DNA from: Cenarchaeum sp.
GTDB taxonomy: Archaea > Thermoproteota > Nitrososphaeria > Nitrososphaerales > Nitrosopumilaceae
Assembly (NCBI GenBank): GCA_965212015.1
Contig: OZ243037.1
Coordinates: forward strand, 96,001-160,000
DNA length: 64,000 nt
Direction of reading: 5' to 3'
Made by a program: the position numbers and the translations under genes. The first letter of the stretch is position 1. The number at the start of each line of letters is the position of its first letter. Shown here one piece after another: positions 8,306 to 20,705 of the stretch. The notes below the pieces were generated by a model. That model was not told the origin of the DNA. It saw only the letters and a list, made by a program, of their open reading frames with translations, and did not search any database.

Positions 8306-8327
8306 GTGCGGCGCCTCCACCCAAGTC

Positions 8328-11080
8328 ATGTCCGGAACGGCGTTATCCAAATCCCCCCCCTAGCTTTAAAATATACGCCGTATGCGGCCCTTGCAATAGT
8401 AATGCTGGCGCTCTCTACCGGTACAGCATATGCCGCAGAATCCGATGATTCCTCGCCCGCAATACTAAACACGATTCAAAACTTTGAGATTTCCGCCGGC
8501 GAGACGGCAAAGCTGTACCTTCACACAAAGTTTACAGATGATGGCGCAATGACGTATGCGGTAGATGCGGCAGACTCTGCAATAGTGTCCGTACGGACAG
8601 ACGGGAGCCGGGTTGCAATGACCGGGCTTGCGGCAGGCACCACGCAGGTTACCGCATGCGCCAGCGACGGCACAAACGATGCAACGTGCCAGACGTTCCG
8701 GGTAACCGTACAGCCATCTGCCACGCCGGTAAAAATATCAAACACGATTCAAAACTTTGAGATTTTAAATGGTGAGACGGCAAAGCTGTACCTTCACACA
8801 AAGTTTTCGGGCCAGGGAGATCTGGAATATACGGCTGATGCGGCAGACTCTACAATAGTGTCCATACAGACAGACAAGGGCAGGGTTGCAATGACCGGGC
8901 TTGCGGCAGGCTCTACGCAGGTTACCGCATGCGCCAGCGACGGCACGGGCGAGCCGCTCTGCCAGAGATACACAGTTACAGTCGCCGCAGGGTCGGTTCT
9001 GCTGCCGCCGCCGGATCTCACGGCAGAGGCCACGGGAATGCTGACGGCAATAGATATCGGCACTGCACGGATTGAGGGCGGTAACTCTAGAATAACCAGC
9101 GACGCGCCGGATTCGTTCCCGCTGGGCGATACCGTCGTGACGTGGAGTGCAGACGGCCACGGGGATGTGGCCCAGACTGTCACCATACGGGATACGACCC
9201 CGCCTAAATTTGGCGTGCTGCGCGACATAAAGGTCGGAGTGTCGCCTGAGCGGCCGCTATTGTTCTATAACACTCCGGATGCAAGTGATCTTGCAGACGA
9301 CTCTGTAGACGTATCGTGTATACCTGAGCGCGAGACGGCAGTCACGCTTGGCACCGTCAGCGTAACATGTACTGCAACTGACGATTCCGGCAATTCCAGC
9401 ACGGGATCCTTTGACGTTACTATGGTTCCGTTTGATGACGGCCTCACGCCAGACACCATACAGTATGATCTTAATGCGCCAATCATTACGGCCCCCGATG
9501 ACATTACCGCAGAGGCGACAGGCGTACTGACTGCGGTGGATATCGGCACTGCCACAGCAAAGGACGCAGACGGCGACTTTCCCACGGTAAGCAGTAATGC
9601 GCCGGACTCTTATCCGCTGGGGGACACGGTAGTGACGTGGACTGCCGTTAATAGTGGCGGCTATGTCGCGCGCGCACACCAGAGTATTACCGTACAGGAC
9701 ACCACGCCGCCGTCATTTGATGTCGTACCGGAGGATGTCAAGCTTGAATCGCAAAACGGCACCGCGTCGCTTTACTATGACACTCCGACTGTGACTGATC
9801 TGGTAGATGGTCGTCCCGGCGTGACATGCGAGCCTGCAGCAGGCACGCAGTTGCCTGCCGGCACCACCAAAATCACCTGCACTGCCACGGATAATGCGGG
9901 CAATTCCGGCATGGTGTCGTTTGATGCCACGGTAATTACCGGCGACGACTCTGCCGCACCGCCGACCAAAGTCGCGTATAACCCCATGAGTATGATAACT
10001 GCGACCATTCCATTTCAAAATAGTTATCTTGGATCCTCTATTGACATAGACGGGAACACCATGGTTGTAGGCGCGTATGGCCACATCCATGATAGTCCGG
10101 AGGACGGTGCAGCATATGTGTTTACACGAACAGCTGACGGCTGGAGTGAGCCCGTCAAGCTTACTGCCGATGAAGGGTTTTGGTTTGGAAGAACCGTGGC
10201 CATACATGGTGATACAATAGTGGCCGGTACCAGAAACAGCGATGGCGGTGCCGTACACGTGTTTACGCGCGACAACAATGTCTGGGTGCAGTCCGATACG
10301 CTGCTAATCAACGGTACGGCCAGTGTTTATTTCGGCAGAAGCGTTGACATTTACGAGGATACAATCGTGGTTGGTGCGGACGTCATACATGCAAGTGACA
10401 CCAGTCCCGGATCGGCATACATATTTACACGGACAGCCGACGGCTGGAGTGAATCCCAAAAGATTGCTGCAAATGACGGCAGTAGAGGCGATCATTTTGG
10501 CTGGGATGTGGCCATTGATCAGAAAACCATTATCGTGGGCTCGTTTAAAAATGCCCTTTATGTCTTTGATGTGAACGACGGTGTGTGGAGCCAGACCCAA
10601 AAGATCACATCTGTAGATAGTGAACATCGAGATTATTTTGGCAAAAGTGCAGCCATACACAATGATACAATGGTTGTGGGTGCTGCCGGTGATGATGATA
10701 TGGGCTCTAACTCTGGCTCTGCATATGTTTTTACCAGAAATGATGCCACAAACAGCTGGGAGGAGGTCTCAAAGCTGCAGCCAGATGACGGCGCGCGTCT
10801 TGACTATTTTGGCAACAGCGTTTCAGTATATGACGACACTGTAATAGCGGGCTCGGTTTTTCACGGTGCGGGTGCGGCCTATGTCTTTAAGAACGGCGAC
10901 AATGCATGGGAGTTTGACTCCAAGCTGACTGTGGATGACGGCAGAAAACACAACTGGTTCGGTTACGAGGTCCGGGCGTATCAAGACACGCTCCTTGTGG
11001 GCTCGATACTGACGGACGGTCAGCTCGAAGGCGAGCTAGTATACAACTCTGGGGCAGTATACGAGTACAATCCGCCATAG
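8328..11080 (+). CDS. Secreted surface protein: 2 Ig-like repeats, HYR domains and FG-GAP beta-propeller; likely start ATG 8328 is out of frame at a C8 tract
   Basis: Signal-peptide-like AALAIVMLALSTGTAYA; HYR-like DTTPP / FPLGDTVVTW / TCTATD; FG-GAP blades (FG.SV.I..DT.VVGA...GSAYVF). The ORF-track GTG at 8306 directly abuts the TATA box. Confidence 0.8.
8353..8360 (+). repeat. C8 homopolymer in the 5' coding region (candidate slipped-strand switch)
   Basis: atcccccccctag. The ATG 8328 frame stops at TAG 8361-8363; one more C (or two fewer) joins it to the long ORF. Confidence 0.7.
8468..8985 (+). repeat. Tandem intragenic duplication, 273-bp (91-aa) period
   Basis: aacacgattcaaaactttgagattt at 8468 and 8741; NTIQNFEI..GETAKLYLHTKF..TQVTACASDGT occurs twice. 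Confidence 0.9.
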
Positions 11081-11463
11081 CATTGGAGCGACTGAACCGT
11101 ATCTGCGTTAGCTTGGCAAAAGCCAGGTTCGGTATCGGGACGTTCCTGCGGATCAGGCAACGCAGTCCCGGCGCAGGCTGCGCACATGGACGCACTGCTC
11201 GTGGGATATGGCCATCTCGTCGCAGCCGATCCTGCGGTCAGTCATTGCCGCGCCGGAATCCCTGACTATTACGATCGGAGTGGACTCTGAGCTCTCGCCC
11301 ATCTTTAGGTTTGCAATTGTGGCCAGGCTGTCAGCTGTCGCCTGAAAGGTCACCTTTAGAGGCCGTCCATTCAGGTCGGTTTTTGCGCGCATGTCTGCCA
11401 CCGGTTCTAGTCCGGCGCACGCTATTGCCACGCCGGTCGTTCCGACCCTTGCAGGCATGAGCC
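10424..11463 (+). repeat. Long direct repeat copy A (surface-gene 3' end plus cofE 3' end)
   Basis: Matches 15082-16120. Stop codons at 11080/15737 and 11153/15810 are both offset by 4657 bp. Confidence 0.93.
11153..11463 (-). pseudogene. cofE: 3' fragment of cofE (F420:glutamate ligase), fused to a transposase fragment
   Basis: LMPARVGTTGVAIACAG...SLRRDCVA is nearly identical to the C-terminus of the full gene at 15810-16592. Confidence 0.9.
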
Positions 11464-11703
11464 AGTTTTGCACCGATTGGTACGATACGACGCAATCGCG
11501 CGCAGTATCTGCCACACTGCGTCCGTTTATTTTTATCATGCAGATGGCGTGCAGTCTCTCTCCTACCGGTGTGCGTTTGTTTTGCTTGTAGGTTTGGAGG
11601 AGTTTTTTTATTTTTTGCGTCCATGGCACGTATGAATGACTAGTGATCAAAAAAGAGCTTGGTTAAAAGTTATTGATCTTCAAAAAACTTATGCGTTTGG
11701 CTA
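11464..11703 (-). mobile_element. IS630-family remnant (left end plus N-terminal HTH of transposase)
   Basis: ERLHAICMIKINGRSVADTARDCVVSYQSVQNW resembles an IS630/Tc1 HTH. The element end abuts TA at 11704-11705, where intact repeat copies read cCTAGtatgaaaaag; CTAG is the classical IS630 target. Confidence 0.65.
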
Positions 11704-11870
11704 TAGTATGAAAAAGTCTTTCAAAACCGACCCGGATTGACGCCTAGGCTCTGTCGGCAATGTCACAAAAAACCACGAATCGGAGTCAAAAGTTGACAAA
11801 TTGAGGATCTTGTGGGCAGATGCTGGCCCGTCTGTAAAGCCCCGAATCAAAGCCAAAAGTTGACAAATTA
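11704..11870 (+). repeat. Partial copy of the island repeat unit upstream of the deaminase
   Basis: tagtatgaaaaagtctt..gattgacgcctaggctctg..cgaatcggagtcaaaagttgacaaatt matches copies near 13956, 14254 and 14606. Confidence 0.85.
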
Positions 11871-12085
11871 AAAGAGAGTGCCCTCGGCGGGAGTCTGCAG
11901 CTCAAAGTCAACGCCCTGTATTTCTTGCAAATTTTGATCACTCATACGCAACCATACACATGATGTGCTTTGATATGTGTTGCGGCAGGTTATCGTATAA
12001 TGACCTGCCTCTTATATTGAATCAGCGATCAGGATCAACTTTATAATTGTGGCAAAGAACAAATCATTATACGGAATAGATCAAT

Positions 12086-13552
12086 ATGGGTGAGAAAACA
12101 AAGCCTCCAGAGCTGTTCATCGGGCTGACTGGGGCAGTCGGCACTGATTTGGATGAGGTCTCTAAAATGTTTGAGAACAAGCTACAGACCTTGGGATACA
12201 GAACAGAGATTATCGTATTGAGCAGATTGCTGGAGCAGGTAATAGGACTGGTAAATAAATATGACAAGAAGGACGAGTATGCCAGGGTCATGGCGCTTAT
12301 GGATGCCGGGGATGAATTCAGAAGAAAGGCCAAAACCCGTGATGCACTGGTTCGGCTTGCCATATTGTACATGATCGAGATCCGAGCCAGAGTGAACGGC
12401 TCTGATTCTGACCATGGGCAGGCATACATATTCAAGTCATTAAAACAGGTAGATGAGGTAAAAAAACTGCGCGAAGTATATGGCAAGAATTTCTGGCTTG
12501 CCTCCGTATATTCCCCACGTAATATTCGATTAAATTACTTGGAAGGTAAAATTGGCAAAGGCGGTTCGGATGTAAAAGAATTGATGAAACGCGACGAATA
12601 TGACGGTACAAATCCTTTGGGTCAGAACGTCCGTGATACGTTCTCAGAGGCAGATGTCTTTCTCAACATGAATCTTAATCTGCGTGGATCAATTGACAAG
12701 TTTATCGAGCTCTTGTTTGAAAACACACTCAATACACCATCCATAGAGGAATCCGGAATGATGCATGCTTTTACTGTCTCTATGGCATCCTCCTCGCTAT
12801 CGCGGCAGGTGGGAGCCTCGATTCTCACAAAATCAGGTGATCTTATATCGACGGGAATCAACGAGGTTCCAAAGGCAGGCGGCGGCCATTATCTGGCCGG
12901 AGACAGAAACGATGCAAGAGAGTGGCAGATTGGCCATGATTCCAACACACGCAAAAAGACAGAGGCACTTGGCGAATTCTTGTCCAATCTGGATATGGAA
13001 GGTTGGCTGGCAGATGGCGTTCAAAAATCAGACATGACGGCAAAAGCTCTGGAATCCGAGAAAATCAAAAGATCGGCATTTCTCAACCTGATAGAATATG
13101 GCAGAGAGGTGCACGCAGAAATGTCGGCTCTGATGAGCGCGATTCGTATTGGAGTATCCGTTACAGGTTGCACAATGTATTGTACTACTTTTCCGTGCCA
13201 TATCTGTGCCAAGCACATAATTGCAAGCGGAATATCCAGACTGGTCTATATCGAGCCCTATCCCAAGAGTCTGGCAGAAGAGCTGTATGGTGACTCGATT
13301 GCAGTGGATGAGGCGGTAACGGAGAATCAGATTCAATTCGAGCCGTTCATCGGCGTATCTCCTAGGCGGCATATGGAATTGTTTAAGATGTTAAAGAGAA
13401 AGGACGAGCAGGGCAATATTATACCATGGAATCCAACCGGCGCTACTCTTAGATATGATGAATTAATCCTGCCTTATAAGAAGGAACAACAGGAGGCCAA
13501 TAAATTAGAGAAAATATTGATCGATCAGGGATTAAAATTTGAACAAAATTGA
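12086..13552 (+). CDS. Anti-phage dCTP/dCMP deaminase (N-terminal P-loop kinase-like domain plus Zn deaminase; AvcD-like)
   Basis: FIGLTGAVGT, SLK..EVKKLREVYG, GQNVRDTF..ADVF, SLSRQVGA, GINEVPKAGGG, VHAEMSA, TTFPCHICAKHII, YIEPYPKS; visibly lower GC than the core genes. Confidence 0.9.
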   Translation: MGEKTKPPELFIGLTGAVGTDLDEVSKMFENKLQTLGYRTEIIVLSRLLEQVIGLVNKYDKKDEYARVMALMDAGDEFRRKAKTRDALVRLAILYMIEIRARVNGSDSDHGQAYIFKSLKQVDEVKKLREVYGKNFWLASVYSPRNIRLNYLEGKIGKGGSDVKELMKRDEYDGTNPLGQNVRDTFSEADVFLNMNLNLRGSIDKFIELLFENTLNTPSIEESGMMHAFTVSMASSSLSRQVGASILTKSGDLISTGINEVPKAGGGHYLAGDRNDAREWQIGHDSNTRKKTEALGEFLSNLDMEGWLADGVQKSDMTAKALESEKIKRSAFLNLIEYGREVHAEMSALMSAIRIGVSVTGCTMYCTTFPCHICAKHIIASGISRLVYIEPYPKSLAEELYGDSIAVDEAVTENQIQFEPFIGVSPRRHMELFKMLKRKDEQGNIIPWNPTGATLRYDELILPYKKEQQEANKLEKILIDQGLKFEQN

Positions 13553-13590
13553 CCCGATATTCTTATATGGTACCGGTTGCTGTATATGGT

Positions 13591-13701
13591 ATGCAAGATT
13601 TACCAAAAGGCTGGATGGCAAAAGTGTTCAAAGAGGCTGCCGAGGCAGTGAAAAAAATACCAAAAGAAGAGCGTGAATATTATGAGCAGCATTCTAGCTA
13701 G
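13591..13701 (+). CDS. Microprotein copy 1 (36 aa, MQDLPKGWMAKVFKEAAEAVKKIPKEEREYYEQHSS)
   Basis: Translated by hand. TTATAT at 13563-13568 upstream; paralogue at 14706 differs by many synonymous changes. Confidence 0.7.
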   Translation: MQDLPKGWMAKVFKEAAEAVKKIPKEEREYYEQHSS

Positions 13702-13859
13702 AATATAGACAGGTTTATGAATTCTGGCTGGATCGAGTTAAAGGTATCCAATAATTCTGTTTTACAGGTCACTTTGTCGTGTCTGAGTGAGGCCCAAAAT
13801 TGGCAAATATGTTGGGATCTCAAGAGGCTGGCAAATTAGGGAATCGTAGACAGGGGTAG

Positions 13860-14665
13860 TGCAGTCTGTAAAGCCCCGAACCGGAGCCAAAAGTTGGCAA
13901 AGTTGACAAATTGGGAGAGGTTGCAAGGCCATATGGTTCAGAAATACATCCAGTCCTAGTATGAAAAAGTCTTCCAAAATAGAAGACAACCGGGTTCGTG
14001 CCTAGATTGACGCCTAGGCTCTGCCGGTAACGCCAAAAACCCCGAATTGGAGCCAAAAGTTGGCAAAGTTGACAAAGTTGGCAAAGTTGGCAAATTGGGG
14101 AATGGCAGTGGGCAGGTGTGGGGCCGTCTGTAAAGCCCGAATTGGAGCCAAAAGTTGACAAAGTTGGCAAAGTTGGCAAAGTTGGCAAAGTTGGCAAAGT
14201 TGGCAAATCAGGGGTGGTTGCAAGGCCATATGGTTCAGAAATACATCCAGTCCTAGTATGAAAAAGTCTTCCAAAACCGACCCAGATTGACGCCTAGACT
14301 CTGCCGGCAATGTTATCAAAAACCCCGAACCGGAGCCAAAAGTTCACAAAGTTCACAAATTGGGGGACACTGCCTAAAAAGTTGGCAAAGTTGGCAAATC
14401 AGGGATGATGCCTAGAAAGTTGGCAAATTCAGGAAAAACGCCCAGGCGGGGATCTGGGAGCAAAGTAGACAAAGTAGACAGAGTAGACAAGTTGGGGATG
14501 CCTAGAAAGTTGGCAAATTCAGGAAAAACGCCCAGGCGGGGATCTGAACGCAAAGTAGACAAATCAGGAAGCTGCAAGACCATATGGTCCAGAAATACAT
14601 CTGTCTAGTATGAAAGAATCTTCCAAAATACACCTAGATTGACGCCTAGGTTCTACCGGCAAAGT
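13860..14665 (+). repeat. Nested repeat field: 9-bp tandem units (AAAGTTG[G/A]C and variants) inside 28-bp, 50-bp and ~300-bp repeated units
   Basis: Six tandem 9-mers at 14151-14204 and four near 14056-14091; identical 50-mers at 14407-14456 and 14497-14546; gcaaggccatatggttcagaaatacatccagtcctagtatgaaaaagtcttccaaaa near 13923 and 14220, degenerate copy near 14574. Confidence 0.92.
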
Positions 14666-14705
14666 CGGTGATATTGTTATATGGTACCGGCTTGCCATAT
14701 ATGGT

Positions 14706-14825
14706 ATGCAAGACTTACCAAAAGGCTGGATGGCAAAAGTACTCAAAGAAACTGTGGAGGAAGTGAAAAAAATGCCAAAAGAAGAGCGCGAATACTATGA
14801 ACAATCATCCAACTATAATGACTAG
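14706..14825 (+). CDS. Microprotein copy 2 (39 aa, MQDLPKGWMAKVLKETVEEVKKMPKEEREYYEQSSNYND)
   Basis: Translated by hand. TTATAT at 14677-14682 upstream; no indels relative to copy 1. Confidence 0.7.
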   Translation: MQDLPKGWMAKVLKETVEEVKKMPKEEREYYEQSSNYND

Positions 14826-15022
14826 TGGTTTTTAAATTCTGGCAGGATCAAGTTAAAGATATCTAGTAGCTCGGTTTCTCAGATCGCTTTGCCGTGTCTG
14901 AGTAAGGCCCAAAATTGGCAGATATGTTGGGATCTCAAGAGGCTGGCAAATTAGAGAATTATGGGCAGGCGTAGTATAATCTGTAAACCCGGAATTGGAG
15001 CCAAAAGTTGACAAATCAGGGG

Positions 15023-15737
15023 GTGGTTGTAGGCGTATATGGAAATGCTCATGATATTCCCGAGGATGGCGCAGTATACGTGTTTACACGAACTATCGAC
15101 GGTTGGAGCGAATCCCAAAAAATTGTTGCAAATGACGGCAGCAGAGGCGATCATTTTGGCTGGGATGTGGCCATTGATCAGAAAACCATTATCGTGGGCT
15201 CGTTTAAAAATGCCCTTTATGTATTTGATGTGAACGACCGTGTGGAGCCAGATCCAAAAGATTACATCTGTAGATAGTGCACATCGCGACTATTTTGGCA
15301 AAGATGCGGACATACACAACAATACAATAATTGTAGGTGCGATCGTGGACGATGATGGAGGTACCAATTCCGGCTCTGCATATGTTTTTACCAAGAACGG
15401 TGCCACAAACAGCTGGGAGGAGGTCTCAAAGCTGCAGCCAGATGACGGCGGGCGCCTTGACTATTTTGGCAACAGCGTTTCAGTATATGACGACACTGTA
15501 ATAGTGGGCTCGATTTTTCACGATGCGGGTGCGGCCTATGTCTTTAAGAACGGCGACAATGCATGGGAGTTTGACTCCAAGCTGACTGTGGATGACGGCA
15601 GAAAACACAACTGGTTCGGTTACGAGGTCCGGGCGTATCAAGACACGCTCCTTGTGGGCTCGATACTGACGGACGGTCAGCTCGAAGGCGAGCTAGTACA
15701 CAACTCTGGGGCCGTATACGAGTACAATCCGCCATAG
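15023..15737 (+). pseudogene. Silent, 5'-truncated and frameshifted copy of the FG-GAP propeller of the surface protein
   Basis: ORFs 15008-15277 and 15240-15737 together match the C-terminus of 8328-11080. 2-bp deletion near 15240 (gacggtgtgtggagc to gaccgtgtggagc); no signal peptide. Confidence 0.88.
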
Positions 15738-16120
15738 CATTGGAGTGGCTGAACCGTATCTGCGTTAGCTTGGCAAAAGCCAGGTTCTGTATAGATACGT
15801 TCCTGCGGATCAGGCAGCGCAGTCCCGGCGCAGGCTGCGCACATAGACGCACTGCTCGTGGGATATGGCCATCTCGTCGCAGCCGATCCTGCGGTCAGTC
15901 ATCACTGCGCCAGAGTCCCTGGCTATTACGATCGGAGTGGACTCTGAGCTCTCGCCCATCTTTAGGTTTGCAATTGTGGCCAGGCTGTCAGCTGTTGCCT
16001 GAAAGGTCACCTTTAGGGGCCGTCCATTCAGGTCGGTTTTTGCGCGCATGTCTGCCACCGGTTCTAGTCCGGCGCACGCTATTGCCACGCCGGTCGTTCC
16101 TACCCTTGCGGGCATTAGCC
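15082..16120 (+). repeat. Long direct repeat copy B
   Basis: Matches 10424-11463, with patchy identity. Confidence 0.93.
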
Positions 16121-16877: not shown

Positions 16878-17699
16878 ATGGGCCTGAATCTCTCCACAAG
16901 GCCGCTCAGTCACGAGGAACAAAAATTCTACCTGTATCTGGAGGGTGCAGGAATCAGCTCCTTCAAGGTCTCTGAAATCGACGAGAAGGAATCAGGGCTG
17001 AGCAGGGAGCATCTTTATGTGATAATCGGCAGGCTGGAAAAAAAGGGATGGATAACCGGGGTGGGAAAGGGAGTCTATCTGCGGCTTCCTGCCAGTACGG
17101 CCCTTGATGGGCGCGCATACCTTGAGGATCCCTTCGAGGTCGGCCTAAAGACGTATTCGGGATATCTTGCATTTCAGAGCGCGCTGAGGATACACGGATT
17201 GAGCGAGTACCAGTCGTTTACCGTTTTTGTTGCAACCAAAAACAAGTCAGAGACCCTACCGCTGCTTGATCACTATGAAATAAAGGCCGTAAAAATAGGG
17301 AAAAGGTTCACCGGCTTTGAGGAAAAAGGAAAATACAAGGTTTCAACAATGGCAAAGACGTTCTTTGACTGTTTTTGCCACCCGCAGTATGCGGGAGGCT
17401 ATTCTGAGATACTGAAATCACTGCACAGGACAAAAAACATGGATTGGACAGAGATGGAAAAACATCTAGCTGAGCTTGGCTCGTCTAGTCTGTGCCAAAA
17501 GATCGGCCATATGGTCTCGCTGCTTCAAAAAGAGACGCAATACGAGATTCCGGCGGGGTTTTTAGGATATCTAAAGGGCAGAATAAAAAACAAGACAAGG
17601 CTTGATTTTGCCGCATCCGGAGGGCAATATGTCCGAGACTGGATGGTAATTGACAATATAGGGGAGAGAAAGCTCCTGTCGTGGTGGTATGATGGTTGA
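16878..17699 (+). CDS. Type IV TA antitoxin / transcriptional regulator (AbiEi-like)
   Basis: N-terminal wHTH RLEKKGWI..VGKGVY, YLAFQSALRIHGL, VSTMAKTFFDC..P.YAGG; overlaps the next gene. Confidence 0.85.
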   Translation: MGLNLSTRPLSHEEQKFYLYLEGAGISSFKVSEIDEKESGLSREHLYVIIGRLEKKGWITGVGKGVYLRLPASTALDGRAYLEDPFEVGLKTYSGYLAFQSALRIHGLSEYQSFTVFVATKNKSETLPLLDHYEIKAVKIGKRFTGFEEKGKYKVSTMAKTFFDCFCHPQYAGGYSEILKSLHRTKNMDWTEMEKHLAELGSSSLCQKIGHMVSLLQKETQYEIPAGFLGYLKGRIKNKTRLDFAASGGQYVRDWMVIDNIGERKLLSWWYDG

Positions 17700-18501
17700 A
17701 TTGCGGGAGGCAAGACAGGCAGCTGCAAGAACGGGAATTGGAATACAATATATTCTAAAAGAGGCAAGGGTATTTGATATTTGGAGCAAGATGTGTCCTG
17801 TCATGCTATCCGATGTAATATTGACAAATGCAAAAACAATATGCAAGGGCGGAACTTCATTGAACAAGATATATCTTGGTAAAATACAATGATTTTCAGA
17901 AGACATTGATTTTGATATATTTTTCAAAGATGATCGATCAAAGGATGAAAAGATCGATTTCATTAAAAATAAGATCATCGCACCTCTAAACAATTCCTAT
18001 GAAATACCAAAGGAATTCAAAAGAAGAAACACCATTCATTTTATGTGCAAGTTTAAAAATGAAATCAATATGGATGATAGCGTGTCTCTTGAATTCAAAA
18101 TTGGGGAAAAAATGACAGGTAGCAGTATAGTTACTAACGCAAGCAGTGCGATACTTCCATTAACCGTAGACAGAGTTCCTGCATATTCATTTCATACACT
18201 ACTTGCCCAAAAACTAAAGGCATTATATGAGCGAGATGAGGGAAAAGATATCTATGACATCTATGTTGGCCTTAATGCCACGAGGGAAATAAGCACGATA
18301 ATTGAGATTTTAAAAGACGTCCTAGCCTCGGCGAATATACGATATGACGATTTTAAAAAAGGAATTACAGAAAAACTTGAAGATGAGAAAAAAATGAAAA
18401 GCCTGCACGGTTCGACCAACCCGTATATTCCAAAGAATCTCAGGATAAATTGGGACATTGCTGCAAAAGGGATTTTAGACAAGATTGGGCCACATCTCTA
18501 G
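17692..18501 (+). pseudogene. AbiEii-family nucleotidyltransferase toxin interrupted by in-frame TGA (17890-17892)
   Basis: One frame reads KGGTSLNKIY..Q*FSEDIDF..LAQKLKALYERDEGKDIYD; ORFs 17689 and 18043 are in the same frame. Confidence 0.88.
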
Positions 18502-19634: not shown

Positions 19635-20534
19635 CTATCTCAGGATTTTTCTCAGGCCCGCGCACCTGTTCCTGATTGTCACCTCAGTGACGCCGGATGC
19701 GCGTGAAATCTCTTTTTGCGACTTTTGCTCCCCGTTGCTTATGCAGGCCAGGTACAGCGCGGCTGCGGCGATTCCCATGGGATCCTTTCCCGCAATGATG
19801 CCGAGCTTTTTTGCCTTGTCAAGAATGCCGACTGCCTTTCGCTTTGTCTTTTCGCTCAGCTTGGCGACGCTTGCTATCCGGGATACGCCCGTGACGGGAT
19901 CGACTACCGGTATCTTTAGATCCAGCTCCCTGAAGATCAGGCGGTAGCACCTTGCAACGTCCTTTTTGCTGATGTTCATCGCGCCTGCGACGTCGTCCAG
20001 GGTTCTTGGCGCACTGGCGTTCCTGCACGCGGCATACATGCATGCGGCCACGAGGCCGTATATCGATCTGCCGCGCGTCAGCTTTTTCTCGACGGACTTG
20101 CGGTACATGTATGCGGCATTCTCCACTATCGCGTCTGCAAGGGCGAGCTTGTCCTTTAGCTTTGCCATCTCGCTGAGGGCGTGGCGCAGGTTCTTGTCGA
20201 CAGACGAGTATGCCTGGGTCCTGCTGTCCCAAGTCCTTAGCCGCAGAATGGATGTCTTCATGTTTGCAGAAAGCGGCTTGCCAGAGGAATCCTTGTTTGC
20301 CGCACCGATGACAGTGGAGAGGCCCATGTCGTGCATCCTCAGCGACGTGCCGGCGCCGGTTCGGGCCCTGCCTGAGTCGTCGCCTGAAAACGAGCGCCAT
20401 TCGGCGCCGGTCTCTTCTAGCTTGTCGCTGGCAACAAAGCCGCAGACGGCGCAAAACACCTCGCCTGTGCTCTCGTCTGTTATCATTTTCTGCCTCCCGC
20501 CCGTGCATCTGTGGGCAGGCGCCGGTTGGTTCAT
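19635..20534 (-). CDS. tfb: Transcription initiation factor IIB (TFB paralogue)
   Basis: TGEVFCAVCG, EWRSF, HDMGLST, RGRS, GKDPMGIAAAALY, GVTEVTIRNR. Confidence 0.93.
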   Translation of the reverse strand: MNQPAPAHRCTGGRQKMITDESTGEVFCAVCGFVASDKLEETGAEWRSFSGDDSGRARTGAGTSLRMHDMGLSTVIGAANKDSSGKPLSANMKTSILRLRTWDSRTQAYSSVDKNLRHALSEMAKLKDKLALADAIVENAAYMYRKSVEKKLTRGRSIYGLVAACMYAACRNASAPRTLDDVAGAMNISKKDVARCYRLIFRELDLKIPVVDPVTGVSRIASVAKLSEKTKRKAVGILDKAKKLGIIAGKDPMGIAAAALYLACISNGEQKSQKEISRASGVTEVTIRNRCAGLRKILR

Positions 20535-20705
20535 GCACTGCTGTGTGGCTCGGGTGTTATTAATTTTTGAGCACAGTCGTGGCCGAATCCCGCACAGGAC
20601 GCCTCCGGCTTTGCCCCGCAGGCGGGCCTGCCAAACCGGACGCCGGAAGGCGCCTGAATGCCGTGATCTGCAATGTACATAAGGCCGGCGCCGCAAGGTG
20701 CAGCA

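Follow-up and report, generated by a model that had tools for sequence, protein, structure and literature searches.

Does an archaeal copy of a nucleotide-depleting defence enzyme act alone, or does it have accessory parts, and which of the elements around its gene would these be? The question is raised by an island of low guanine-plus-cytosine (GC) content at ~11704-15022 of the window, i.e., the 64,000-nucleotide (nt) stretch of Cenarchaeum sp. DNA analysed here (G000:C1:96001-160000; the source genome is a single contig of 1.76 Mb). The island carries a gene for an AvcD-type deoxycytidine triphosphate (dCTP) deaminase and, behind it, a gene for a microprotein of 36 amino acids (aa) that occurs twice, with short repeats on both sides and hairpins upstream. 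A preliminary description had taken microprotein, repeats and hairpins together as candidate accessory parts. That proposal fared unevenly: the microprotein is linked to the enzyme and predicted to bind it, whereas the repeats are not conserved and the hairpins have neither a significant fold nor an Rfam match. Our verdict is a known enzyme, a new conserved partner and incidental repeats. Coordinates are window positions unless prefixed "genome"; L- and G-numbers denote compared loci and genomes, m1 and m2 are microprotein genes 1 and 2, and m3-m5 are further copies in the same genome.

The deaminase and the small gene behind it

Judged by its sequence, the 488-aa enzyme belongs squarely to the known family of anti-phage dCTP deaminases, and as an enzyme it is not new. 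It scored 437.4 bits against the curated NCBIfam equivalog NF041025 (cut-off 400), covering model positions 1-434 of 437, and the PADLOC check suggested in the preliminary description returned the dCTPase model (E 4.4e-147). An N-terminal P-loop kinase-like domain precedes a C-terminal deoxycytidine monophosphate (dCMP) deaminase domain (Pfam PF00383, residues 224-389), in which the zinc-binding catalytic motifs H343-A344-E345 and P370-C371-x-x-C374 were invariant across an alignment of 38 homologues. The earlier identification of a two-domain gene with AvcD motifs, and its reading as a putative archaeal copy of a nucleotide-depleting deaminase, are upheld by these matches. The fold model (predicted local distance difference test, pLDDT, 87.6; predicted template-modelling score 0.88) had as its PDB neighbours dCMP deaminases for the C-terminal half and the adenylate-kinase-related entries 3h0k and 3lw7 for the N-terminal half; the PDB copy searched contained no full-length AvcD-like structure. 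Upstream of the gene, the sequence TTTAATAT, aligned to its TATA-like box, was conserved in L017-L019. The host is a Nitrosopumilaceae-like archaeon: the nearest deaminase loci among named genomes came from metagenome-assembled genomes labelled Nitrosopumilus sp. and Cenarchaeum sp. A full-length deaminase is rare in the lineage: among 201 genomes sampled across the order, 6 encode one, and among 401 sampled across the phylum, 3 do, with one of these three scoring below the cut-off.

In nearly all related loci examined, the microprotein was encoded 3' of the deaminase and on the same strand. A first profile, built from six PKEERE-type copies alone, recovered copies behind the deaminases of L017, L018 (three copies) and L020. 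It also found diverged copies, of the form EKGW[LM]...[ILM]PQW.[KR]D, directly 3' of the deaminases of L021 (E 6e-6), L023 (1e-3) and L025 (9e-3), which are only 42-45% identical. No further match at E<0.01 was found with this profile in 52,624 six-frame segments from this genome and the loci. Like open reading frames (ORFs) spotted by eye lay 0-110 nt 3' of the deaminase in L006, L007, L008/L009, L010 and L022. When 201 genomes of the order were searched in six frames with an 18-sequence profile, it matched in all six that have a full-length deaminase, each time directly behind the enzyme; five places in the present genome matched. The other 195 genomes gave a single marginal match (E 0.009), within a 488-aa frame in G169. 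Because five of the six deaminase genomes had contributed to the model, it is the silence of the other 195 that is informative. Two loci outside the model also carried the ORF: it stood directly behind the enzyme in L054, from another family of the phylum (E 5e-4), and overlapped the deaminase stop codon in L041, a plasmid of Vibrio nigripulchritudo (E 4.5e-4).

The genomes of L017, L018, L019, L020 and L024 contained 1, 4, 3, 1 and 30 microprotein matches, compared with 1, 2, 1, 1 and 12 full-length deaminases, respectively; among these matches, 28 in G671, one in G669 and three in G667 were outside the model. All but one of the 39 followed a deaminase gene, or a relic of one, in the same orientation. 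In G671, a comparison of coordinates placed 30 of 30 matches 3' on the same strand of one of the 12 deaminases, the nearest match being 56-100 nt away for eight enzymes, ~370 nt for one and 2-3.7 kb for three. The fourth match in G669 was behind a second deaminase, 46% identical. In G667 (the genome of L019), two copies were found 6.1-6.7 kb downstream on the same strand, one of them directly behind a relic of a deaminase C-terminus, and the third copy was unlinked. The small gene is amplified twofold here, threefold in L018 and in arrays of up to five copies in G671.

Within the present genome, m4 (genome 833895-834008, minus strand) is behind a relic of a deaminase C-terminus, m5 (genome 307087-307191, minus strand) is behind a deaminase whose middle has been replaced by a DUF3800 gene, and m3 (genome 738161-738268) is solitary, with no deaminase beside it. 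At both decayed loci that retain a copy, the enzyme is broken and the small ORF intact. The preliminary description had asked whether its candidate parts co-occur with the enzyme or are found without any link to it. On the sequence comparisons, the microprotein tracks the deaminase, which supports its status as a true accessory part, tightly and widely linked to the enzyme; the repeats are missing from related loci and also stand at deaminase-free ones.

Judged by its substitutions, the 36-aa ORF is a real gene under purifying selection, and gene 2 is an old duplicate that selection has maintained. Genes 1 and 2 are identical at 31/34, 31/34 and 24/34 sites in the first, second and third codon positions, respectively, and the ratio of nonsynonymous to synonymous substitution rates (dN/dS) was 0.09-0.25 for most pairs (0.11 for gene 1 versus gene 2, 0.09 versus L017, 0.16 versus L020 and 0.12-0.19 for L017 versus L018). 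The gene had been described as starting at a TTG codon (13549-13701), which we correct: the conserved start is the methionine of MQDLPKGW (ATG at 13591), shared by all 18 aligned relatives, whose alignment is gapless through an invariant proline at position 24. The core motif can be written GW[LM]-x15-P-x-[WE]-x-[KR]. A TTATAT box lies 23-28 nt 5' of the ATG in m1-m4, L017, L018, L020, L022 and L021, a spacing that implies a promoter of its own and a leaderless mRNA; that a promoter-bearing microprotein gene is present twice in the island, as first proposed, is thus borne out. The fold model consists of two helices (residues 8-21 and 25-35; pLDDT 87). A read-through extension of the deaminase was considered as an origin of the microprotein and rejected, the ATG at 13591 being in a different frame from that at 12086.

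The family had no match in Pfam, PHROG or PDB and is therefore uncharacterised. In a set of 1.84 billion representative proteins, about 100 clusters matched its profile (E <= 1e-3), and a peptide-profile search of proteins returned nine, whose sole name was "hypothetical protein". No usable match for the peptide came from the ESM Atlas, tblastn of P0134 against plasmids and phages gave none, and among the matches listed no deaminase homologue had the peptide motif fused at a terminus. A DNA-binding domain was not recognised in the microprotein.

Several further observations concern these two genes and their relatives. Decayed deaminase fragments occur at genome 1006946-1007276, 391786-391956, 308478-308750 and 834044-834223; the first two (L002 and L003) match residues 179-290 and 329-385 at 69-79% protein identity and are what remains of earlier copies, and no microprotein was found near them. 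G671 (3.2 Mb, labelled uncultured Cenarchaeum, and the source of L024-L027) encodes 12 full-length paralogues of the anti-phage type and 30 microprotein-like ORFs. Downstream of each microprotein gene in the island is a 60-nt non-coding core with two TGGCAAAT motifs (13795-13850 and 14910-14965). The two ~327-nt modules are 82% identical as a whole; their cores agree at 56/60 positions and are more alike than the third codon positions of the ORFs, and the core was not seen in other genomes. At the E. coli and Klebsiella plasmid loci L042 and L044, an annotated hypothetical ORF of ~60 aa (1206-1391 and 1195-1377, respectively) takes up the place, immediately 5' of the deaminase, in which one would look for the AvcI RNA; neither matched the microprotein profile. 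A search for loci of the wider family with a three-sequence alignment found one metagenome locus, L028, and no match in viral contigs. L028 (2989-3975) is a phage-like contig with a PHROG DNA-polymerase exonuclease, an HNH gene and a nucleoside deoxyribosyltransferase, and its microprotein relative is encoded directly 5' of a 93-aa kinase-like ORF and ~350 nt 5' of a 163-aa dCMP deaminase. This arrangement may be a split version of the partnership, or a viral mimic.

Predicted binding and its possible meaning

Structure prediction supports binding of the microprotein to the deaminase. Models of the complex gave interface scores (ipSAE) of 0.77, 0.78 and 0.78, compared with 0.00 for the best of three controls, with a partner pLDDT of at least 84 and at least 85% of contacts common to the runs. 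Among solved complexes, 58 of 80 attain this ipSAE mark, as do 2 of 110 mismatched pairs, counts that apply only roughly here because our own alignments were used. Since the PDB copy contained no full-length AvcD-like structure, the high score is unlikely to reflect a memorised structure. On the enzyme, the predicted interface comprises residues 41-51, 84-103 and 123-130 of the kinase-like domain, and 465-475 and 485-488 of the C-terminal helix.

We propose that the island holds a two-gene antiviral module, in which an AvcD-type deaminase is paired with a 36-aa inhibitor playing the role that the AvcI RNA has in Vibrio, the flanking repeats being incidental; we would give this an even chance of being right. 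The active deaminase, acting on dCTP or dCMP, would starve a replicating virus of deoxycytidine nucleotides. The microprotein, whose gene immediately follows that of the enzyme and would be transcribed from a TATA promoter of its own into a leaderless mRNA, would bind where the kinase-like N-terminal domain and the C-terminal helix together form a surface, and would hold the enzyme inactive in uninfected cells. When a virus shut off host expression, a short-lived microprotein would not be replenished and the deaminase would be freed. We infer the inhibitory sign, the lability and the trigger by analogy with AvcI. An inhibitory sign is also hinted at, faintly, by three features: the small gene has a promoter of its own, it has been amplified, and it persists at loci whose deaminase is decayed.

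A number of points weigh against this reading. The copies of L006, L007, L008, L010 and L022 were seen by eye first and then added to the model, and related genomes are non-independent samples. The small ORF was missing from six of seven bacterial plasmid loci (E. coli, Klebsiella, V. coralliilyticus, Zymomonas, Pseudosulfitobacter and Azospirillum) and from the locus of a sub-threshold deaminase, L055. Between m1 and the copies of L018, dN/dS was 0.46-0.77. The complex score is the model's confidence in itself, obtained with our own alignments, and the predicted interface lies away from the deaminase active site (343-374), so that inhibition would need allostery or action through assembly; a role as cofactor fits the same predicted contacts. 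Finally, a 36-codon ORF may outlast the decay of its neighbour by chance.

The rival that survives best takes the last but one of these points further: the microprotein would be a positive subunit that the deaminase needs, i.e., a cofactor, an assembly factor or a virus sensor, rather than an inhibitor. It draws on the same linkage and predicted binding as the inhibitor reading, and it sits comfortably with predicted contacts on the kinase-like domain and C-terminal helix, off the catalytic HAE and PCxxC motifs. However, one would expect an obligate subunit to be translated together with its enzyme, whereas the small gene has its own conserved promoter, has been amplified independently of the enzyme and is intact at three enzyme-less sites. 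None of these three is decisive, and we regard a positive subunit as unlikely rather than improbable.

Hairpins, repeats and the setting of the island

The two hairpins drawn upstream of the deaminase in the preliminary description can indeed be formed by the sequence, at ~11948-11982 and 11985-12010, but the fold of 11870-12085 was no better than that of shuffled sequences (z = -0.38; 64 of 200 shuffles equalled it), and no Rfam family matched the hairpins. The second hairpin (core GGTTAT-N6-ATRACC) is kept in L017 and L019, with no compensatory changes in its stem. Lying upstream of the conserved deaminase TATA box, it reads better as an operator-like element, and is probably a DNA palindrome or operator 5' of the promoter. 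Taken together, the lack of a significant fold or an Rfam match and the position 5' of the TATA box leave an AvcI-like RNA unsupported.

Copies of one non-coding repeat unit had been noted on both sides of the deaminase, and units of 61 and 31 nt are indeed found up- and downstream of it. The 61-nt unit occurs at 11704-11763, 14253-14313 and 14605-14665, with a 72% copy at 13956-14030, and the 31-nt unit starts at 11770, 11837, 13871, 14037, 14132, 14320 and 14985. Each ~300-nt higher-order unit of the downstream patchwork combines a 31-nt unit, 9-bp arrays of AAAGTTGGC (14056-14098, 4.9 copies; 14151-14207, 6.3 copies), ~45 nt left over from an ATPase gene's 3' end, matching the end of the ORF at L001 10108-10662, and a 61-nt unit. 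The family is limited to two regions of this genome and is always on the plus strand. It also occupies three deaminase-free sites, at genome 738 kb (the orphan module), 743.6-744.6 kb and 746.0-746.8 kb; those at 743.6-746.8 kb come after STAND-type ATPase genes, beside a HEPN_Swt1 gene and a DUF499/HmaC gene, and it is from the 3' end of this ATPase gene that the pieces in the island's array derive.

The 9-bp, 31-nt and 61-nt repeats were missing from the related deaminase loci L017-L027. A search of 150 further family genomes, with four of the same genus among them, did not find the repeats in 149; the remaining genome, which is unpublished, gave one marginal match, on which we base nothing. 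In G671, 52 tandem arrays were counted in 83.2 kb at the 12 deaminase loci, compared with 37 in 65.0 kb of ten control stretches. We therefore rejected tandem repeats as a conserved accessory of the deaminase, given their absence from related loci and the lack of array enrichment in G671; these repeats are genome-specific satellite DNA. In L018 the same layout is built of unrelated DNA, a 601-nt unit present three times being composed of the peptide module and a copy of the enzyme's upstream 133 nt, an arrangement suggesting that the duplications arose by unequal recombination between flanking repeats. Most likely, the repeats in our island are scars of the recombination that duplicated the microprotein module and play no functional part in it. 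In the short pieces of Logan contigs obtained from four DNA runs, the repeat joints (e.g., 11772 to 14377 and 13882 to 14997) were indistinguishable from the genome's other repeat loci, and we draw nothing from this.

These results bear on a second rival, in which the upstream hairpins, repeat transcripts or both would serve as an RNA antitoxin of the AvcI or ToxI kind, either alone or alongside the peptide. Passages of one report describe an adjacent small RNA as a component of AvcID (PMC12409362), the segment 11958-12073 is ~75% identical to the upstream region of L019, hairpin 2 is shared as described above, and with three Tandem Repeats Finder arrays in its 3.4 kb the island exceeds the genome-wide figure of 0.085 per kb about tenfold. 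Set against this are the fold statistics, a consensus energy of only -8.85 kcal/mol, a conserved stem lacking compensatory change, hairpins upstream of a conserved TATA box with no Rfam match, and repeats that are absent from L017-L027, present (marginally) in one of 150 other family genomes, found at deaminase-free loci and, in G671, no denser near deaminases (0.62/kb) than in control stretches (0.57/kb). An RNA antitoxin thus seems improbable to us. Weakest of all, and likewise improbable, is a mobile or duplicating cassette, made up of promoter, ORF, 3' region and repeat, whose insertion behind deaminases would reflect no functional tie to them: a complete lone module at genome 738119-738445 with the same repeats on its flanks, and tandem amplification of modules in three genomes, would suit such hitch-hiking, but the linkage spans deaminases only 40-45% identical with differing flanking DNA, genomes without the enzyme are silent to the profile apart from the one marginal match, and binding is predicted with clean controls.

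Table 1. Features of the island and its borders (window coordinates)
Feature	Position	Strand	Basis
Host segment, left copy (~1.1 kb): 3' part of FG-GAP surface-protein gene and 3' part of cofE	10365-11463		Self-match, Pfam F420_ligase
IS630-like element, truncated 5' end, abutting first repeat unit	11460-11706	-	84% copies at genome 313430-313675 and 1112071-1112315
Upstream repeat units: 61-nt unit (11704-11763), 31-nt units (11770-11800, 11837-11867)	11704-11867	+	Self-match, genome match
Two adjacent hairpins (~11948-11982 and 11985-12010)	11948-12010	+	Fold, alignment
TATA-like box (ACTTTATAATTG), 37-48 nt 5' of deaminase ATG	12038-12049	+	Read from sequence
AvcD-type anti-phage dCTP deaminase, 488 aa, catalytic motifs intact	12086-13552	+	NF041025, PADLOC, Pfam, alignment, fold model
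TATA box of microprotein gene 1 (CTTATATG)	13562-13569	+	Same box at same distance in 9 loci
Microprotein gene 1, 36 aa, MQDLPKGWMAKVFKEAAEAVKKIPKEEREYYEQHSS	13591-13701	+	Profile, alignment, dN/dS, fold model
Microprotein module 1, non-coding 3' part with 60-nt core	13702-13875	+	Comparison of copies 1 and 2
Repeat patchwork, ~2.7 higher-order units of ~300 nt	13860-14665	+	Self-match, genome match
TATA box of microprotein gene 2	14677-14682	+	Promoter comparison
Microprotein gene 2, 39 aa	14706-14825	+	dN/dS, codon positions
Microprotein module 2, 3' part, ending with 31-nt unit (14985-15015)	14826-15015	+	Self-comparison
Host segment, right copy	15024-16120		Pfam F420_ligase, as in left copy

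The GC content of the island (0.43-0.45 over 12001-15000) can be compared with 0.50-0.58 in most 1-kb intervals outside low-GC stretches. On either side it is flanked by direct duplicates of a host segment, 72-93% identical overall (93% between 10417-11463 and 15076-16120, and 72% between 10365-10479 and 15024-15138). The duplication looks like the result of single-crossover integration of a circle with a diverged copy of the host segment. The left-hand cofE copy is truncated and fused to an insertion sequence (IS) fragment, and the right-hand cofE is intact. That fragment belongs to an element that, from our reading of its sequence, we take to be IS630-like; a full ORF of 335 aa is present at genome 312586-313593 (minus strand). 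Transfer RNA scans found none in the island or in L001, and a search of 11000-16000 against Rfam gave a single chance-level match, outside the island.

To the right, a second low-GC stretch (16878-18501) encodes AbiEi (273 aa; PADLOC E 6e-46) followed by the C-terminal half only of AbiEii (152 aa), a pair that has probably decayed. With the intact cofE, AbiEi and truncated AbiEii on this side, we describe the neighbourhood as a small defence island. Beyond it is a TFIIB-family gene (19635-20696). To the left, 8306-11080 encodes a secreted-type protein of 924 aa with seven FG-GAP repeats, two HYR domains and Big_2 domains; surface proteins of the FG-GAP/HYR kind are common in sponge-associated archaea. 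The same repeat family recurs in a second island of defence type (L001 10600-16900; genome 743.6-749.9 kb), which has a perfect 48-bp array of 16 copies, a 112-bp array of five copies, and genes for STAND/AAA_16 ATPases, a HEPN_Swt1 protein (PADLOC PDC-M34B) and a DUF499/HmaC ATPase.

Known systems and what the partner would change

Nucleotide-depleting deaminases have so far been viewed as systems of one gene or, in the case of Vibrio, as a toxin-antitoxin pair under RNA control. If our reading is true, a protein partner mostly missed by gene callers would change both annotation and the model of activation for one deaminase clade, and toxin-antitoxin-like control of nucleotide depletion would extend to ammonia-oxidising archaea. 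Such a regulator would be readily testable, as a 36-mer can be synthesised. A tentative generalisation, to which we give somewhat less than an even chance, is that throughout an AvcD-type clade, spread over Nitrososphaerales, some Acidimicrobiia and at least one Vibrio plasmid, a two-helix protein antitoxin of ~35 aa stands in for the AvcI RNA. Arrays of copies would then set the threshold for firing, orphan copies would be anti-addiction genes, and viruses may carry peptide mimics that disarm the enzyme. An enzyme gene is accompanied by as many as five peptide copies, and one sponge-associated genome has 30 of them to its 12 enzymes.

With the anti-phage dCTP deaminases (NF041025; PADLOC and DefenseFinder), the locus has in common the family, the domain order, the catalytic residues and a low-GC island beside other defence genes; it differs in having a small conserved ORF downstream of the enzyme. 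Passages of the preprint of Tal et al. (10.1101/2021.04.26.441389) treat the system as a single gene, name bacterial phyla and mention no small downstream ORF. In the literature searched, no description was found of a protein partner for an AvcD-type deaminase, in keeping with the preliminary description, which had held its accessory parts (peptide and/or repeat RNA) to be absent from described bacterial architectures.

Tandem-repeat RNA antitoxins are a feature of type III systems of the ToxIN type. The likeness to these systems, which are named in a passage of PMC10511110, lies in short tandem repeats flanking a defence enzyme gene. Here, however, the loci of related enzymes lack the repeats, other sites in the genome have them, and most of the copies lie downstream. 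In type II toxin-antitoxin systems, a protein antitoxin binds a protein toxin. Our locus resembles them in its small adjacent protein, conserved with the enzyme and predicted to bind it, in its orphan copies and in the amplification of the small gene; it differs in that the small gene is downstream and has a separate promoter, that no DNA-binding domain was recognised, and that neutralisation and lability are proposed.

The closest comparison is with Vibrio AvcID, a type III toxin-antitoxin system. According to passages of two reports, AvcI inhibits AvcD post-translationally and decays upon transcription shut-off (PMC10511110, PMC12409362). The enzymes are homologous, and the proposed logic is shared, i.e., a labile product of an adjacent gene would restrain the enzyme and be lost on shut-off. 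By the fold test and the Rfam search, no AvcI-like RNA was detected at our locus; where Vibrio has a non-coding RNA, this archaeon has a gene for a 36-aa protein, 3' of the enzyme and with a promoter of its own.

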